Counted from the stretch's first letter, positions 30,963 through 38,792 are shown. The stretch is 64,000 bases of DNA from Bryobacterales bacterium (GCA_022824585.1 JAJDZN010000124.1:2029-66028); one strand, 5' to 3'. Notes: generated from the sequence alone by a model not told the origin. Program-made: numbers and translations.

Positions 30963-31703
30963 ATGAAGTGTAGTTTCACCGGCGAATCAGTTCCGACGGA
31001 CAAGCTCTTTCTGCTCTACTACCCCCCCGACGCAGCCCACGAGACTTGGGAGAAGTCGACCTTCGCGGCCGCCCGCGCGCGCGAAGCCATCGGCGCGGCG
31101 CGTGAGTGCCTGGTCTCTTTCTTTCGGCGCTACGTGGCTACAAGGCGGATGCTGCCTGGCCTGCTCATGGTCTTGGGCGCACTCGCACTGTTCGGCCTTT
31201 GGATGCATTCCGCGCTGCGAGGCTGGGGCGAGCTAGGATTCGTCGTACGGTATTTGGTCCCCGCTGTGTTGCTGGTCGCGACGTTTATCGGCAGTACTTG
31301 GGTTTCCGCGTTTCTGGGCCGCTGGAAGCTCTGGCGGCAAGGCTGCAAGGAGGCTGTCGCCAAAGAGCTGGCCGCCGTCTCCCGGGTCATGCATGACCTG
31401 CCGGACGATCCGGACGCCGAACAGGCGGCTGCGATCATGCGCCGCGAGGTTCCGAGCATCATGTCGGAGGTGGCCTTTTTCGGCCAGAACTTCAAGGCGT
31501 TCACCTACATGGACTTCGTGCTGGGGCCGAGGCTGCGCAATCCGGCCGACCGCTCCGAGCTGCCGCAGGCGCACAGCCCGTATCGGGATGCCTACTACGT
31601 GGGCGAAGTCGTCTACGACAATGCGCGGATGTTCCAGAAAGACAGGCGCACCACCAGCGATCCCCGCTTCGTGGGCAGCGGTGGCCGCCGCGGCGTGATC
31701 TAG
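30963..31703 (+). CDS. hypothetical membrane protein
   Basis: Two or three hydrophobic segments (LPGLLMVLGALALFGLW, YLVPAVLLVATFIGSTWVSAFL). The ATG at 30963 is preferred; the track ORF starts at 30849. Confidence 0.55.
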   Translation: MKCSFTGESVPTDKLFLLYYPPDAAHETWEKSTFAAARAREAIGAARECLVSFFRRYVATRRMLPGLLMVLGALALFGLWMHSALRGWGELGFVVRYLVPAVLLVATFIGSTWVSAFLGRWKLWRQGCKEAVAKELAAVSRVMHDLPDDPDAEQAAAIMRREVPSIMSEVAFFGQNFKAFTYMDFVLGPRLRNPADRSELPQAHSPYRDAYYVGEVVYDNARMFQKDRRTTSDPRFVGSGGRRGVI

Positions 31704-32863
31704 CCCCGGCTGGTCGGCCGCAGGTTCTTGAGCGGATGCACGCGGTCCTTTAGCGGGAAGTCGATCACTTTGCGCTGGAGCTGCGAGGCGTACATGCCCT
31801 GTGTCATCTCGACCGTCCAGCGGCCGGCACGCTCGCTGCAGGCGGGCTCGCTGCCCTCCTCGATCGCCCGCAGCAGGTCTTCCACCATCAGGGCGTTGGC
31901 AGTGAGGTGGCGCTCGCTGCCGAAACTGCGGTGCTTCGGCTCGATCAGCTCCCACTGCTTGTCGCGTCGCGGCACCCACGCCGGTGATCGCAGGATGTAG
32001 GCCTCCGAGCTCTCGTCGTAGACCTCGTTGGGAAGGAAGATATAGCCCTTGGCGCCGAAGACGTGCGTCCCGAACCGCCACGGGTGGGTCTGGCTGGACT
32101 CGTTCGATGCGAAGTAGCCGTGCCGGCCCTGGCCGAACGAGAACATCGCGGACATCTGGCGTCCGGCGATGGGCCCGATAGGCTCGTTAGGCTTGCGCAT
32201 GTGGTCGAAGCTGAGCTCCTCGCCCTTGGACGTGATGTGGGAGAAGACCCATTCCGGATCTCCCAGCACGGCGCGCATCATGTCGAAGATGTGCGATCCG
32301 AGCACGACCAAGTCTTCGCCCCCGGCGCGATAGTCCTCCTTTCCCCGTCCCCGCACCTCGTGGATCTCGCCGATCTCGCCCGCTCCGATCAGTTCCAGGG
32401 CCTTGAGCGTGAAGGGAGACCGCCGCATCTGGTGCGCCAGCTGGACCTTGACGCCGGCCTTGCGGATCGCCTCCACCATTTGATCGGCGTCTTCCAGCGT
32501 GGCGGCGAATGGCTTCTCGAGGTACATGTGGCAGCCCGCTTGGGCGGCCGCGGTTACCATCTCCCGCCTCTGGTCGGTGTGGCGCGGACAGATGCTGACG
32601 ATGTCTGGCTTCTCCGTCGCGAGCAGTTCCCGGTAGTCCGCGTAAGCGTGCCCCGCCCCGGTTCGCTCTTGCGCCTTGGCGCGGCCTTCCTCGTCCGGGT
32701 CGGCGACTGCGACTACGTGGGTCTGCGGGAACACCGGCCAGACGTCCCCGATGCCATGGCCATAGTTCCCTCGGCCGGTGTGGCCGATGACTCCGACTCG
32801 GTAGCGAACCTGAGCGCGGAGTGGGATCGCGAGTGCGCCCGCGAGGAAGTGCCTGCGCTGCAT
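31700..32863 (-). CDS. Gfo/Idh/MocA family oxidoreductase with Tat signal
   Basis: MQRRHFLAGALAIPLRAQ followed by the Rossmann motif VGVIGHTGRGNYGHG. Confidence 0.85.
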   Translation of the reverse strand: MQRRHFLAGALAIPLRAQVRYRVGVIGHTGRGNYGHGIGDVWPVFPQTHVVAVADPDEEGRAKAQERTGAGHAYADYRELLATEKPDIVSICPRHTDQRREMVTAAAQAGCHMYLEKPFAATLEDADQMVEAIRKAGVKVQLAHQMRRSPFTLKALELIGAGEIGEIHEVRGRGKEDYRAGGEDLVVLGSHIFDMMRAVLGDPEWVFSHITSKGEELSFDHMRKPNEPIGPIAGRQMSAMFSFGQGRHGYFASNESSQTHPWRFGTHVFGAKGYIFLPNEVYDESSEAYILRSPAWVPRRDKQWELIEPKHRSFGSERHLTANALMVEDLLRAIEEGSEPACSERAGRWTVEMTQGMYASQLQRKVIDFPLKDRVHPLKNLRPTSRG

Positions 32864-32869
32864 GGCCTG

Positions 32870-32878
32870 ACTATACCA
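32870..32878 (-). promoter_or_regulatory. extended -10 box TGGTATAGT, 6 nt upstream of ATG (leaderless candidate)
   Basis: Minus strand reads TGGTATAGTcaggccATG, with the ATG at 32863. Confidence 0.45.
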
Positions 32879-33069
32879 ATCAGACTGTGGCGCGGGTCAG
32901 CGAAACATCAGGCCGGAAATCCGACAGAAACGGCCCTACAGGCCCTCGCCGCCTGACGGTCCGAGCGCAGGGCGCGGGCACGCCATCGCCTCGCCGCGCT
33001 CGTAGGGAATCCGCCGGACCCGACGGGTTCCGGCCGACGGCCCGACGATGTCTAATCTTCGGCCCGCGG

Positions 33070-33516
33070 CTATTCCGACACTTCCGTAAGCTCTTGGCCG
33101 CCTTCGACCCAGCCCTCGATCCCTCCGAACTGGATCTCGTTCTCGTAACCGTTGTCTCTCAACATGGCCGCCGCACGGGAGGCCCTGCCACCGCGCCGTC
33201 AATAGGCCACGATGGGCTTGTCGCGAGGCACTTCTGCCAAACGGCCCTCGAGTTCGTCGATCGGGATGTGGGTGTAGCCCTCGATAGCCCCGTCCTGTAC
33301 CAGTTCCTCGGGCGTGCGCACGTCGAGCAGGAAGATGTCTTCCCCGCCTGCCAGCCGTGTCGCGACGTTCTCGACGTCAAGTTCGGTCGGAGCGGCGACC
33401 TCGGCCGCCATCGCCTCGCCTTCCGACGAAGCGGCTGTCTCGGGGCCCTCGCCTCCGCCGCAGGCCGCGAGGGCCAGGGCGGCCGAAAAAGCCCCGCATG
33501 CTAGTGCTCTTGTCAT
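33070..33516 (-). CDS. rhodanese-domain lipoprotein with in-frame TGA at the catalytic Cys position (candidate selenoprotein or fresh pseudogene)
   Basis: Lipobox LALAAC. The sequence LLDVRTPEEL...DKPIVAY-TGA-RRGGRASRAAAMLRDNGYENEIQFGGIEGWVEGGQELTEVSE-TAG is all in one frame. The TGA (33201-33199) sits where rhodaneses have C in the CRxGxR active-site loop. Confidence 0.65.
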
Positions 33517-33528
33517 CTCGTTCTCCTG

Positions 33529-34425
33529 TTAGGCGTGCCAGCCGAGCGTGGATGCCTCCGGTATTCGCTGGACCAAGTCCGCTAACTCGTAGCGGTTTTC
33601 CGCTCCGATCGTGAAGCAGTCGATGCAATCCAAGGCCATCGCATGCTGCAGCGCCTCGCCCACGCGGTCGCGCAGGACTCCCTCGCCGAGAATCTTCATG
33701 CCGATGACGCCCTTGCCCGCCGCCTTGATCTTGCACAGCTCTTCGATGACCGTGGCCGGGTCGGCGTCCATGCGGGCGCCGACCGCGTTGACCCGGGCCA
33801 GGTCCACGTCGATGAACTCCTGCTTGTGGACTTGCCGCAGCGCGGGCAGCGAATGGCAGGAGATCCCGCGCGACTTGACGATGCCTTTCTGCTTGTACTC
33901 GTTGATCACGTCCATCGCGCCTGCGCGCTGGACCGGCCAGTCTTCCTCGCGCACCGCGTGCAACAGCAGCAGGTCGATGTAGTCGGTCCTGAGCTCCCTG
34001 CGGAAGCGCTCGATGTCCTCGCGCATGCCCTTCGCGGTCTTGGTGGTGGACTTGGTCATGATCACGACCTTTTCGCGAGGGATGTCTTGCAGGGCCCGCC
34101 TCACGTGCGGGTGGCTGCCGTAGCCATCGGCGGTGTCCCAGAAGTTCAGGCCGCTGTCAAAGCCGAAGCGGTACAGGTCCGCCAAGCCCTCCACGCCCAG
34201 CTTGCGGGTTTGGTTGGACGCGCCGCGGAATCCGCTGGTGCCGGTGCCCATGGCCAGCCGCGACGGCTTCAGGCCGTCCGGCCCCAGCGACACGGTGTCG
34301 TAGGCATAGCGGCGCGCCGGGTTCTCCGAGTAGCCGCTGACTGCCCCGAAGAGCTTGTGCTGGAGCGCCGCTATCGGAGCCCCCGCTAGCAACGAGTGGC
34401 GGACGAAGTCTCGTCTTCTCATCAT
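33529..34425 (-). CDS. aldo/keto reductase with Tat signal
   Basis: MMRRRDFVRHSLLAGAPIAA followed by AKR blocks (FWDTADGYG, IDLLLLH). Confidence 0.85.
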   Translation of the reverse strand: MMRRRDFVRHSLLAGAPIAALQHKLFGAVSGYSENPARRYAYDTVSLGPDGLKPSRLAMGTGTSGFRGASNQTRKLGVEGLADLYRFGFDSGLNFWDTADGYGSHPHVRRALQDIPREKVVIMTKSTTKTAKGMREDIERFRRELRTDYIDLLLLHAVREEDWPVQRAGAMDVINEYKQKGIVKSRGISCHSLPALRQVHKQEFIDVDLARVNAVGARMDADPATVIEELCKIKAAGKGVIGMKILGEGVLRDRVGEALQHAMALDCIDCFTIGAENRYELADLVQRIPEASTLGWHA

Positions 34426-34500
34426 GGGAATTCCAGAGTCAGGCTACCACACAGCCGCAGTCCTCGGGGACTCGTCCGCCGTGCTCGGCCGATGCCGAAA

Positions 34501-35304
34501 TCAGGGAGCGGGGGTGATCTTCAAGTTTCGGTAGTGCGCGACGGTCGAACCCTCGAGCCACAGCGCCACGTTGCCGGTGGCGCTCGCGCCGGACTTGACG
34601 TCGTTCACCAGCAAGGTTGGCTGTTCGGCCCCGTTCAAGTAGATCCGAGCCTTCTCGCCATCCACGGTGATCTTGACCTTGATCCACTCGCCGGGCACGA
34701 TGTCCGCGTAGGTCTCGTACCTGCTCGGGGTCTCGCCGCGGAACTTGTACCAGGTCCATTCCGGGTGGGAAATGTACTGGACGGTGTGGTTGCGCCGCTC
34801 TTGGTCATCCGCCCGCCCGTTGGTCGGCCGCAGGTAGAAGCAGTCGTAAGTCTTGCGGTCCTCCTGCAGCCGCCAGGCGATGCCGACGAATCCGCGAGCA
34901 CCGCCCTGCGCCCCCGGAGCGGGCTGGCCGGAAACCTCGACCTCGATGGTGCCGTTTCCGAATTCCGAACCCTTGACGATAGCCAGATGATTGGTGCGCA
35001 GCGCCTCGAATGTACCCGGGCCCCGCGGCTGCTCGCCGCGCGCCCGCATGGCAGCCATCATCTCCGCCCGCTTCTTCTGGGCCGCTCGCAGAACCTCGGG
35101 ATCCCCGCTCACCTTGAGGCCTCGCTGGCCGTCAAGCGAGTCGGGCGCCGCCAAGACGTTGACCAATTCCAGCCCTTCCGTCGAGTCAAGGGCGAGTTCC
35201 TGCGCGGCGAGCGGCAGCGACAGGACGGCCAGGCACAGCGTCCAAAGTAGCGGAGTGGCGCGCCCGGCCGTACGGAGGATCGGGTGTCGCTCTACTCGTT
35301 CCAC
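34501..35304 (-). CDS. secreted ConA/LamG-like jelly-roll protein (DUF1080-like)
   Basis: Signal peptide. The C-terminal pattern GEWIKVKITVDGEKARIYLNG...HYRNLKI resembles DUF1080-type domains. The assignment is tentative. Confidence 0.55.
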   Translation of the reverse strand: MERVERHPILRTAGRATPLLWTLCLAVLSLPLAAQELALDSTEGLELVNVLAAPDSLDGQRGLKVSGDPEVLRAAQKKRAEMMAAMRARGEQPRGPGTFEALRTNHLAIVKGSEFGNGTIEVEVSGQPAPGAQGGARGFVGIAWRLQEDRKTYDCFYLRPTNGRADDQERRNHTVQYISHPEWTWYKFRGETPSRYETYADIVPGEWIKVKITVDGEKARIYLNGAEQPTLLVNDVKSGASATGNVALWLEGSTVAHYRNLKITPAP

Positions 35305-35828
35305 GGAGGAGTCACCCCGTTGACGCGAGCGTAGGCGATCGACTGGCCGAGATGCTCGCTAAGGTGGTTGAGGGCCATCGATACCGCGCCGCGCTTGGTG
35401 GTGTCTTGGCCGAACAGCTTCATCGCGCTGTCGGCTTCGTCTACCGACAGCTTGCCGATCGCGCCTCGCAGGTGGGCGAAAGACTTCACCAAAGCGGACT
35501 TGATCTCGCCCGCGTCGGTCGTCGATTTCTCCAAGCCCCGCACGTCAAGCCCCTCGGGCGGATTCGTGCCGAACGCCCGCGCCACGAAATAGTTCGCGGA
35601 CGCGACGTGCAGCAAGACCTCCGATGTCGAGCGCACGCCCTCGCCGGGGCGGTAGGTCTGCTTGTCGCCGGCCATCGCGCCGGCCAGTCCGGTGAACTTC
35701 TCTTCGAGCTGGCCTAGGCGGCCTTCCGCCTCCCCGACAAACCCGTCTCCGGCCACCAACGCCAGCGGCGCCACCAAAACTGCGAGCCCGCAGAAAACGA
35801 TCGCGGGCCAACTTCTCACATTCATCAC
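35292..35828 (-). CDS. DinB-family protein (secreted)
   Basis: Signal peptide and a four-helix DinB-like pattern with the C-terminal HLSEHLGQSIAYAR. Confidence 0.7.
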   Translation of the reverse strand: MMNVRSWPAIVFCGLAVLVAPLALVAGDGFVGEAEGRLGQLEEKFTGLAGAMAGDKQTYRPGEGVRSTSEVLLHVASANYFVARAFGTNPPEGLDVRGLEKSTTDAGEIKSALVKSFAHLRGAIGKLSVDEADSAMKLFGQDTTKRGAVSMALNHLSEHLGQSIAYARVNGVTPPWNE

Positions 35829-36369: not shown

Positions 36370-37413
36370 ATGCGCCAGCGATTCCTCCGCGCATGTGCCG
36401 GCGAGTCCGGGGACTGCACTCCGGTGTGGTTCATGCGCCAAGCGGGGCGCTACATGGCCGCGTACCGCGCCTTGCGGCGCGACCACACGATCTTGGAGAT
36501 TTGCAAGACGCCGCGCCTCGCGGCAGAGGTCACGCGGCAGCCCGTCGACGCCTTGGACGTGGATGCGGCAATCATTTTCGCGGATCTCCTGCTGCCGCTG
36601 GAGCCGATGGGGCTCGGGCTGGAGTTCGTCGCCGGCGACGGCCCGCGAATCGAGCGGCCGGTCCGCTCCCGCGCCGATATCGATCGGCTCGAGACCGGGC
36701 GCGCCGCGGATCTGGACTATGTCGGCGAGTCCATTGCCCTGGCGCGCCGCCACCTGGACGGCCGCGTCCCGGTCATCGGATTCGTCGGCGCGCCGTTCAC
36801 GCTGGCGAGCTACATGATCGAAGGCAGGGGCTCGCGCCATTACGCCGCCACCAAGAGCCTGATGTGGAGCGACCCGTCCGGATGGCGGGAACTGATGGAG
36901 CGCATCGTCGCCGTGCTGGCGCCGTACGCTGCCAGCCAGGTCGCCGCCGGTGCCAGCGCCATCCAGGTTTTCGACAGCTGGGTTGGCGCGCTGTCCCCGT
37001 CCGACTACGAGCGCTTCGTCCTGCCGCATTCGCGGGAGTTGGTGCGGCGCATCCAGACCGGCGGCGTGCCGGTGATTCATTTCGGCACCGGCAACGCGGG
37101 CTTCTTGGAGGTGTTCTGTCGAGCTGGCGGCGACGTGCTGGGCCTGGACTGGCGCGTTGACCTGGCCGCGGCGTGGGAGCGCGTCGGCCACGACACGCCA
37201 GTGCAGGGAAACTTGGACCCGCTCGCCCTGCTGGCGCCCCTGCCAGAGCTGCGCCGCAAGGTTCGCGCCGTCCTGGCCGCCGCGGACGGACGTCCCGGCC
37301 ACATCTTCAACTTGGGCCACGGCATCATCCCCGAGACGCCCGTCGAACACGTCCGCGCCGCCGTGAGCATGGTCCGCGAGTATTGCGCCGAGCGAAAGGC
37401 ATGTCCCGGGTAG
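36370..37413 (+). CDS. hemE: uroporphyrinogen decarboxylase
   Basis: PVWFMRQAGRYM signature. Confidence 0.95.
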   Translation: MRQRFLRACAGESGDCTPVWFMRQAGRYMAAYRALRRDHTILEICKTPRLAAEVTRQPVDALDVDAAIIFADLLLPLEPMGLGLEFVAGDGPRIERPVRSRADIDRLETGRAADLDYVGESIALARRHLDGRVPVIGFVGAPFTLASYMIEGRGSRHYAATKSLMWSDPSGWRELMERIVAVLAPYAASQVAAGASAIQVFDSWVGALSPSDYERFVLPHSRELVRRIQTGGVPVIHFGTGNAGFLEVFCRAGGDVLGLDWRVDLAAAWERVGHDTPVQGNLDPLALLAPLPELRRKVRAVLAAADGRPGHIFNLGHGIIPETPVEHVRAAVSMVREYCAERKACPG

Positions 37414-38792
37414 CCATCGTTGGCGGCGGGGTCTCGGGCTTGTCTGCCGCCTACTACTTGGGGCGGCACGGCATTCCCTGCACTCTGATCGAGCGCGAGC
37501 AAAGGCTCGGCGGCATCGTCCGCACCGAGCGCTTCGGTGACTGCTTGGTCGAGGCCGGGCCGGACAGTTGGCTGGCTGAGAAGGACTGGATGCTGGACCT
37601 GGTGCGCGAACTCGGACTCGGCCACCAGGTGATCGGCTCCAATGACGAAAGGCGGCGTACCTATGTCGTCCGCCGCGGCCGTCCGCGGCCGCTGCCCGAG
37701 AGCATGCGGCTGCTGGCGCCGTCCAAGCCATGGCAGGCGGTCGCTAGCGGGCTGTTCGGCTTGGCCTCGAAGGCTCGCATGACGGGAGAGTGGTTTCGCC
37801 GGCCCCAGACGCTGCCCGAGCGGTCCGTTGCCGAATTTGTGGAGGACCACTTCGGGCGCGAGGCGGTCGAGTACCTTGCGCAGCCGCTGCTGGCGGGCGT
37901 GTACGGCTCGCCCCCCGAGAACTTATCGGCCGACAGCGTGATTCCGCGTTTCGTGGGATACGAGCGCGAGTACGGCAGCCTGCTGCGCGGCGTGTGGAAG
38001 AATCGCAAGCGACATCGGGACGGGCCTCTGTTCCTGACGTTGCGGGAGGGCATGGGCTCGCTGACCGACGCGCTGCAGCAGCACCTCCCCGAAACCTGCG
38101 AAGTCGTTGCGGACGAGGTACGGGCGGTGCAACCCAGCGCCGCCGGGTGGCGGGTCCGGGCCGAGCGCGGCGCATGGGATGCCAGCAGCGTGATCGTCGC
38201 GACTCCCGCCCCCGAAGCCGGTAGGCTGCTCGCTGGCGTCGACGATGCCCTGGCCGAGGGCCTGGGAAGCATCGTCTATACCTCCTCGGTCGTAGTCGCT
38301 CTGGTGTACCCGCAGCGCGGCTTCGGCCATCCCTTGGACGGCTTCGGCCTCTTGATCCCACGGGCCGAGCGCGGGACGCTGGCCGCCTGCACTTGGACAA
38401 ACACGAAGTTCTCAGGCCGGGCCGGGCCGGGCAAGGTCTTGCTGCGGGCTTTTCTGGCCGGCGCGGACGCCGAGCGGGCCCTGGAGTCAAACGACGAATT
38501 GGTATCCGGGCGAGCGGACGCGGAGCTGCGGCAGCGGATGGGCTTCCGATCTACCCTGGAGGTGTCGCGAGCCTACCGCTGGCCCGCCGCCATGCCCCAG
38601 TACTCGGTGGGTCATACCGCGCGGGTGAGCCAGATCGAAGAGCGGCTGGTCCGCTTCCCGGGGCTGCACTTGGCGGGAAACGGCTATGCCGGGCTCGGCC
38701 TGCCCGACTGCGTCCGTCGCAGCGAGCGCATCGCGAGGGCGATAGCGTCCGGAGAGGCGTCCCTCACGACCCCAGCCGCTGGACCGCCATGA
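37401..38792 (+). CDS. hemY: protoporphyrinogen/coproporphyrinogen III oxidase (HemY/CgoX family)
   Basis: MSRVAIVGGGVSGLSAAYYL FAD-binding N-terminus. The ATG at 37401 overlaps the hemE end. The track ORF has an Arg-rich extension back to 37173. Confidence 0.9.
   Translation: MSRVAIVGGGVSGLSAAYYLGRHGIPCTLIEREQRLGGIVRTERFGDCLVEAGPDSWLAEKDWMLDLVRELGLGHQVIGSNDERRRTYVVRRGRPRPLPESMRLLAPSKPWQAVASGLFGLASKARMTGEWFRRPQTLPERSVAEFVEDHFGREAVEYLAQPLLAGVYGSPPENLSADSVIPRFVGYEREYGSLLRGVWKNRKRHRDGPLFLTLREGMGSLTDALQQHLPETCEVVADEVRAVQPSAAGWRVRAERGAWDASSVIVATPAPEAGRLLAGVDDALAEGLGSIVYTSSVVVALVYPQRGFGHPLDGFGLLIPRAERGTLAACTWTNTKFSGRAGPGKVLLRAFLAGADAERALESNDELVSGRADAELRQRMGFRSTLEVSRAYRWPAAMPQYSVGHTARVSQIEERLVRFPGLHLAGNGYAGLGLPDCVRRSERIARAIASGEASLTTPAAGPP

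Follow-up and report, generated by a model that had tools for sequence, protein, structure and literature searches.

The window analysed here, a stretch of 64,000 nucleotides from a Bryobacterales bacterium (GCA_022824585.1, JAJDZN010000124.1:2029-66028), carries on its minus strand a small gene for a predicted rhodanese lipoprotein precursor whose reading frame is interrupted by a TGA codon, and the meaning of that codon is our subject. By direct reading and translation, the open reading frame (ORF) starts with ATG at 33516-33514 and runs for 105 codons to a TGA at 33201-33199, after ...DKPIVAY. Past the TGA the same frame stays open for 42 sense codons (RRGGRASRAAAMLRDNGYENEIQFGGIEGWVEGGQELTEVSE), which encode C-terminal peptides including AAAMLR and DNGYENEIQFGGIEGWVEGGQELTEVSE, and ends with TAG at 33072-33070. 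An earlier note on this DNA, made from the sequence alone, had described the stop and the open frame beyond it correctly and gave 43 codons for the latter, a figure that includes the terminal stop. TGA also serves as an ordinary stop codon in this genome, being the final codon of roughly half the long ORFs in the window. With the TGA read as selenocysteine (Sec), the complete coding sequence (33070..33516, minus strand) would comprise 148 codons including Sec, followed by TAG, and would specify a single-domain rhodanese lipoprotein precursor, an assignment that draws on sequence, translation and the Pfam family PF00581. The same gene architecture is repeated in 44 Bryobacterales loci.

A Shine-Dalgarno-like AGGAG of presumed function (33523..33527, minus strand) can be read directly 7 nucleotides 5' of the ATG. 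At the N-terminus, MTRALACGAFSAALALAAC-GGG resembles a lipoprotein signal in that a charged and then a hydrophobic stretch precede LAAC, as judged by a match to the pattern [LVI][ASTVI][GAS]C alone. The predicted signal peptide spans 33460..33516 (minus strand), with the lipobox L-A-A-C at residues 16-19 and the codon of Cys19 at 33460-33462, and Cys19 is unchanged across 34 aligned homologues. When the TGA is read as Cys, the 148-residue product matches PF00581 over residues 52-137 (33106..33363, minus strand; E 4.6e-14, 53.1 bits against a cutoff of 22.2), a rhodanese homology domain also found by comparison with rhodanese domains in the PDB. The match runs across the TGA, and profile positions 6-100 of 102 are covered only with both parts joined; the downstream stretch is the rest of a rhodanese domain, as the earlier note had it.

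The top matches among solved structures are the rhodanese domain of the persulfide reductases 3NTA and 4OCG (E 1.8e-13), where 'iiifCqvglrg' aligns with 'ivayCrrggra' here and the TGA lies opposite the Cys of that domain, residue 531 by count. We take Cys 531 of 3NTA to be the catalytic Cys of the rhodanese domain. The placement of the TGA at the active-site Cys, already recognised in the earlier note, is borne out by this alignment and by the PF00581 match that spans the codon. Read as Sec, the UGA (33199..33201, minus strand) would supply residue 106 at the catalytic Cys position, as indicated by the 3NTA/4OCG alignment, the conservation of the TGA and the Cys homologues described below. It would open a six-residue active-site loop, U-R-R-G-G-R (33184..33201, minus strand), identified from the translation and from homologues, with a UxxG motif and with Arg at +5 and Ala at +6 from Sec. 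Across the homologue alignment C106 (Sec written as C), G109, R111, A112 and R114 are invariant. Six-residue loops are those of sulfurtransferase-type rhodaneses, and seven-residue CX5R loops those of Cdc25 and arsenate reductases; by loop length the protein is probably a sulfurtransferase-type rhodanese.

The joined protein, used as a query, retrieved 117 relatives, none of which is a full-length entry annotated with Sec; the two that bear NCBI names are each a 'hypothetical protein' (MDE0108075.1, MDE0104337.1). About 90 are 94-113 residues long, and all of these end in ...KP[IV]V[AT]Y at the TGA column; their identity to the query ranges over 58-95%, and they are spread over many contigs of up to 8.5 Mb. 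Relatives of full length (~150 residues) have YCMRGGRASRAA at the TGA column. Reading the codon itself in DNA fetched from species-representative genomes (54 loci plus the window) gave 65 pattern matches with a stop at the active-site column each time, always TGA and never TAA or TAG. One match (L033, 12960) is probably spurious and was excluded, which leaves 64 credible genes. After every TGA the frame stays open for 41-52 codons, which encode xxGGRA[SAT]RA...NGY...GG...W. The carriers are mostly Bryobacterales metagenome-assembled genomes (MAGs), of which several seem from their isolate labels to come from sponges, together with Vicinamibacteria, Candidatus (Ca.) Marinacidobacterium, Ca. Multivoraceae and one Verrucomicrobiales MAG, and 15 further TGA genes occur in 11 metagenome contigs.

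Cys is the sole alternative seen at this column: 21 Bryobacterales/Acidobacteria genome loci have TGC there, and Cys forms reading 'YCMRGGRA' (TGC or TGT) also occur in many metagenome loci. The earlier note had pointed to the codon in close relatives as informative; those sampled carry TGA, none has TGC in an otherwise identical sequence, and the Cys forms are more distant. For 28 Bryobacterales Sec forms, the ratio of nonsynonymous to synonymous substitution rates (dN/dS) is 0.22 over the downstream codons +13 to +36 (dS 1.07) and 0.12 over the upstream codons -45 to -1 (dS 1.24). The dN/dS of 0.22 is accompanied by many synonymous changes, and the part 3' of the TGA is therefore translated and under purifying selection. 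Gene calls give the window's exact 105-residue truncated product on 9 contigs, which stem from independent samples and assemblers (the cluster of this product holds n = 13 sequences), and long-read chromosome-level MAGs have the same TGA. Complete chromosomes with the gene include OZ241997.1, where the orthologue is 98% identical, OZ252099.1, OZ242276.1 and OX638379.1. Recurrence of one product on 9 independent contigs means that the base call, which the earlier note had wanted confirmed, is sound.

The proposed bacterial Sec insertion sequence (SECIS) core occupies nucleotides +18 to +36, where the U of UGA is +1 (33166..33184, minus strand), and has the 6-7 bp stem GGCC-U-CC / GG-C-GGCC, a possible extension to 33161-33189 and the apical loop C-G-U-G-C at 33173-33177 (minus strand). 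In the window this hairpin (33184-33166; GGCCUCCCGUGCGGCGGCC) folds with -8.7 kcal/mol, and with -12.3 kcal/mol when extended to 33189-33161. The segment 'GCC UCC CGU GCG GCG GCC' (nucleotides +19 to +36) is nearly invariant in Sec forms, synonymous sites included, and the Cys forms vary freely there. Among 36 non-redundant Sec forms, codons +7 to +10 (UCC CGU GCG GCG) have a codon entropy of 0, with Arg always encoded by CGU; entropy is ~0.35 at codons +6 and +11 against 1-2 bits at comparable codons elsewhere. Over codons +1 to +12 dS is 0.36, one third of that in the flanks.

Across 45 distinct sequences the register 18-24:30-36, with the loop C25-G26-U27-G28-C29, is 85.7% paired, and the same core is recovered by RNAalifold. 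Pair 24:30 is CG in 33 sequences, GC in 12 and unpaired in none, and G22:C32 or U22:G32 pair in 20 of the 45. The Vicinamibacteria-type stem GCCGCG[CGUGC]CGCGGC has G24:C30 in place of C24:G30 and G22:C32 in place of U22-C32. Covariation reaches 0.196 versus 0.083 in shuffles (0/500 reach it) and lies above that of all slid registers. The loop is CGUGC in 61 of the 65 matches. Cys forms are without such a hairpin and give different folds of -3.6 to -6.7 kcal/mol. The bacterial SECIS (bSECIS) model of Zhang and Gladyshev (summarised in PMC13188914) has a loop of 3-9 nucleotides, an upper stem of 4-16 bp, a position 16-37 nucleotides from the UGA, a G in the first two loop positions followed by G or U, and a minimum free energy (MFE) of -7.5 kcal/mol or lower. 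The window's hairpin agrees with it in every item, having a 5-nucleotide loop with G-U at loop positions 2-3, a spacing of 21 nucleotides, 6 bp plus one mismatch, and -8.7 kcal/mol. We regard the comparative case for conservation and covariation of this hairpin among Sec orthologues as moderate.

Other folds of the same segment fared less well. The single-sequence MFE hairpin (7-11:24-28 + 13-14:20-21) is 98.7% paired in Bryobacterales but shows no compensatory change. Its 5' arm is set by the RGG codons, and in Vicinamibacteria-type genes pair 11:24 is broken in 12 sequences and pair 7:28 in 14. It also leaves the frozen synonymous sites at nucleotides 30-36 unexplained, and the register 18-24:30-36 is preferred. 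The stem-loop drawn in the earlier note, GUGGC...GCCAU enclosing GCC/GGC (11-15:34-38 + 19-21:30-32), does not hold up: it is 72.5% paired, equal to shuffles, with several pairs broken in 12-36 of the 45 sequences. A SECIS-like hairpin conserved in orthologues, which that note had proposed to look for, was found in the register 18-24:30-36. An Rfam search of the window gave no match.

Several side observations concern the Sec codon, its hairpin and their arrangement. Codon -1 (33202-33204), a Tyr codon, is UAU in 32/32 Sec forms with Tyr, and at the other Tyr positions of the gene UAC prevails (27:6); in Cys forms the Tyr at codon -1 is UAC in 3 of 5. The base 3' of the UGA is C in 40 and A in 25 and never anything else. 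UAU at codon -1 and C or A after the UGA may be a context requirement for recoding. Two Cys-form genes with TGC (L102 10201 and L103 4361, 0-based TGC offsets) keep 'GCUUCCCGUGCGGCGGAC' downstream, near-identical to the SECIS of Sec forms, and this may be a leftover of a recent Sec-to-Cys conversion. In Vicinamibacteria and Ca. Marinacidobacterium, Sec-type rhodanese genes stand in tandem ~400 nucleotides apart, with the active-site segments 'LTT-U-MVGPRAARA' and 'LTA-U-QGGGRAARA'. Such pairs (0-based TGA offsets) are L068 10135+10558, L069 10147+10550, L070 10132+10539, L074 9794+10279 and L078 10135+10539, with others in L116, L118, L120 and L121. Every gene of a tandem pair has its own GCCGCG[CGUGC]CGCGG hairpin, and from sequence the adjacent genes look like a two-selenoprotein tandem.

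Evidence on the Sec machinery comes from the order level. Ca. Solibacter usitatus Ellin6076 is recorded as SelD+, SelA+ and SelB+ with 8 known selenoproteins (Peng et al. 2016), and NCBI places Ca. Solibacter usitatus in Bryobacterales. Its SelA, taken from the supplement of Zhang et al. 2006, was used as a query; among the best 120 of 8000 candidates identity is nowhere below 72%, and MAGs named Bryobacteraceae and Acidobacteriia are present alongside many JGI/metagenome sequences. The E. coli SelA query gave Enterobacterales only among the matches listed (best 120 of 8000). Sec machinery in the window's own organism is plausible on this support from its order.

Alongside these searches, selA was seen in two Bryobacterales-type contigs (L163 10001-13267; L164 10001-13369), where it adjoins efp and a GFO/IDH/MocA gene; a tRNA-Pro(cgg) of normal length, 77-78 nucleotides, lies just upstream, and selB is not adjacent. 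ARAGORN calls long tRNAs (92-98 nucleotides; Arg-gcg, Pro-cgg) near rhodanese loci at L020 363-454, L038 19629-19726 and L046 13336-13433, and these may be intron-containing or false calls. A scan of the window and loci for other UGA codons with a hairpin gave one other credible case, a formate dehydrogenase alpha-subunit gene (fdhA) on the minus strand of L095 (TGA ~1622-1624) with the classic Sec site ENQARL-U-HGPTV and a downstream hairpin. This contig, L095, is of metagenome origin and 325 kb long, and has a gene for a Cys-type rhodanese relative as well. A Sec/Cys-pair scan of the window and loci for other selenoproteins returned almost entirely antisense-frame noise. One rejected candidate, at 37080-37922 of the window (minus strand, antisense to a 539-residue gene at 37173-38792), has a TGA/TGC/TGG polymorphism among relatives that mimics a Sec/Cys pair in Arg/Ser/Pro-rich junk; this ORF is an example of the false positives that such scans give in DNA of 66% G+C.

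We put the probability that the in-frame UGA encodes Sec at the catalytic site of a small rhodanese at roughly 0.88. Sec is favoured because the TGA is conserved, the downstream frame is selected, Cys homologues exist, and the SECIS-type hairpin combines synonymous constraint with one compensatory pair. On these comparative data the earlier note's preference for Sec over a recent nonsense mutation holds. The UGA at 33201-33199 would be recoded during translation, with the hairpin at 33184-33166 acting within the coding sequence as a bacterial SECIS. Its CGUGC loop would expose G26-U27 and recruit SelB-GTP-Sec-tRNA(Sec), Sec would be inserted, and translation would then run 42 more codons to the TAG. 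The LAAC lipoprotein signal would lead to export of the product and its lipid anchoring outside the cytoplasm, where the U-R-R-G-G-R loop could carry out rhodanese-type transfer of sulfane sulfur (or selenium) via a Se-S (or Se-Se) intermediate. We infer SelB dependence and Se incorporation, as well as export, lipidation and the substrate; the role is most likely that of an extracytoplasmic, membrane-anchored carrier of sulfane sulfur (or selenium).

Some results weigh against a Sec codon in this gene, or at least fail to favour it. The folding energy of the hairpin is no better than that of G+C-matched shuffles (z -0.84 for the core, -0.28 extended and +0.93 for 72 nucleotides) and was set aside as evidence, in line with the earlier note's caution that a fold in sequence this GC-rich is weak evidence on its own. 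Probably no more than one or two evolutionary events lie behind the compensatory swap at 24:30, and the U22-C32 stem mismatch is present in 25 of the 45 distinct sequences, the window included. No selA, selB or selD (tblastn, E. coli queries) and no tRNA-Sec (ARAGORN) was found in the window or in the ~2 Mb of fetched loci, an absence that is expected because the loci are 20-kb samples of genomes of 3-9 Mb. No NCBIfam selenoprotein model scores above its cutoff. Finally, the genes of the surrounding cluster, described below, are of the sugar-oxidoreductase type; none is a sulfur or selenium gene, and they give no hint of a sulfur or selenium substrate.

Among other explanations, the one that survives best is a programmed read-through or recoding of the UGA with a standard residue in place of Sec (near-cognate Trp, Cys or Arg), in which the hairpin stimulates read-through and does not bind SelB. 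The comparative data speak to translation of the UGA and to conservation of the hairpin and not to the residue inserted, and the lack of Sec genes in the window and fetched loci agrees with this explanation. We nevertheless consider it improbable. The UGA lies exactly at a redox/nucleophilic catalytic Cys with Cys as the sole alternative, the signature of a Sec/Cys pair, and the hairpin matches the bSECIS model in its spacing and G-U loop. UxxG rhodanese-like selenoproteins are, moreover, an established predicted class, and the cultured Ca. Solibacter usitatus of the same order is reported with SelA, SelB and SelD.

Alternatively, the UGA could be a true stop, with a 105-residue N-terminal fragment or two peptides as product and the downstream sequence conserved for some other purpose. 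Gene callers and NCBI do annotate a 'hypothetical protein' of 105-108 residues. However, the 105-residue fragment stops short of the active-site loop and is missing the final third of the rhodanese fold, and the first downstream ATG (33165) has no Shine-Dalgarno sequence and would give 31 residues that do not include the catalytic loop. What is conserved downstream is the amino-acid sequence of the same frame, and a true stop is very unlikely. The earlier note had itself named a further alternative, a recent TGC/TGT-to-TGA nonsense mutation that left a fresh pseudogene, with the downstream frame as an undecayed remnant. TGA is one base from TGC, and the window taken by itself is compatible with such an event, but 54 species-level genomes have the TGA in common, the N-terminal part of their protein sharing only 58-95% identity with that of the window, and the 41-52 downstream codons are open everywhere, with dN/dS 0.22 at dS ~1.1. 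Because a stop that old would have led to decay of the frame, the pseudogene explanation is effectively ruled out. A sequencing or assembly error that hides a true TGC is a general possibility and nothing more, and its probability is negligible given the identical 105-residue product on 9 independent contigs, the 13-member cluster and the TGA in long-read chromosome-level MAGs.

The putative Sec-rhodanese gene lies in a conserved co-directional cluster (31700..35828, minus strand) in the order DinB_2 (35292-35828), 3-keto-disaccharide hydrolase-like (34501-35304), aldo/keto reductase (33529-34425), Sec-rhodanese and GFO/IDH/MocA oxidoreductase (31700-32863), all on the minus strand and named by family assignment. 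This five-gene order is kept in ~30 Bryobacterales species and is the same on independent contigs. The aldo/keto reductase stop is at 33529-33531 and the ATG of the Sec-rhodanese follows 13 nucleotides further on, a gap so short that co-transcription of the two genes is likely. Both oxidoreductases of the cluster have N-termini that read as twin-arginine-like. In another clade, an HpcH/HpaI aldolase stands beside the Sec-rhodanese.

The gene and at least 78 relatives are cut at the putative Sec codon in public gene calls (~105 residues), which would hide a selenoenzyme and understate selenium use in marine Acidobacteria. A single order provides Sec forms and Cys forms by the dozen, together with a short, near-invariant candidate SECIS, and the family could train selenoprotein finders and aid the study of Sec/Cys exchange. 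If the predicted export and lipid anchoring are true, Sec chemistry would take place outside the cytoplasm, which is relevant to the trafficking of sulfane sulfur and selenium. A full-text search found no literature joining 'Bryobacterales' and 'selenocysteine', and neither the distribution over Bryobacterales, Vicinamibacteria and Verrucomicrobiales nor the CGUGC-loop SECIS was met in the rhodanese-selenoprotein literature examined.

Among non-selenoprotein rhodaneses, the E. coli thiosulfate sulfurtransferases PspE (periplasmic) and GlpE (cytoplasmic) share the single rhodanese domain of ~100 residues and the six-residue loop, and a predicted export signal recalls that of PspE; the protein here differs in having a predicted Sec for Cys and in the lipoprotein type of the predicted signal. 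It is not an orthologue of either, scoring 35.2 against the PspE equivalog cutoff of 102 (NF007627) and 24 against 102 for GlpE. The NADH-dependent persulfide reductase and CoA-disulfide reductase structures (3NTA, 4OCG, 3ICR) are the best structural matches, with the rhodanese-domain Cys (531 in 3NTA) aligned to the TGA. Their rhodanese is the C-terminal domain of 570-residue flavoproteins, whereas here the domain is free-standing and predicted to be exported. As for the hairpin, bacterial SECIS elements of the E. coli fdhF type likewise lie within the coding sequence just after the UGA and have a small loop with G and then U; the present element is unrelated to fdhF in sequence, has a CGUGC loop and, in the window, a U-C mismatch in the stem, and its binding by SelB is a prediction.

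We take COG2897 to be the two-domain SseA type of rhodanese. The Sargasso Sea metagenome study described rhodanese-related sulfurtransferase as a selenoprotein family, with its entry under COG2897 (PMC1088965), whereas the protein here is a single-domain, lipobox-bearing precursor. A 2026 review catalogues five rhodanese-like selenoprotein 'forms', of which forms 2 and 4 are PF00581 proteins with UxxG (PMC13188914). Between them, the Sargasso Sea study and this review confirm the earlier note's statement that rhodanese-related sulfurtransferases are among the reported selenoprotein families. Form 3 (NF041203, rhodanese_LYCAU, CxU) is not matched: the score is 26.5 bits, with the cutoff at 115, and the motif is Y-U-R-R-G, which has no Cys two residues before Sec. 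Nor is form 5 (TsoB, a rhodanese/DsbD fusion with UxxxxU and two Sec), since here there is one UGA, one domain and 148 residues. With forms 2 and 4 (exemplars MBM9537886.1 and MCY3690685.1) the gene shares PF00581, a single putative Sec at the catalytic Cys, the U-x-x-G motif (here U-R-R-G) and Cys homologues, a likeness seen in motif and domain. Tentatively, and with some doubt, its relatives might form a distinct, undescribed clade of extracytoplasmic, lipobox-bearing Sec-rhodaneses in marine, possibly sponge-associated Acidobacteriota and a Verrucomicrobiales MAG. Such a clade would have its own near-invariant SECIS, would have switched between Sec and Cys repeatedly in a single order, and would add a sixth 'form' to the five catalogued. 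No new category is needed, as rhodanese-like selenoproteins have been predicted since 2005: judged by its predicted Sec, motif and domain, the gene is a member of the UxxG rhodanese-like selenoprotein class already described, itself newly recognised and mis-annotated.

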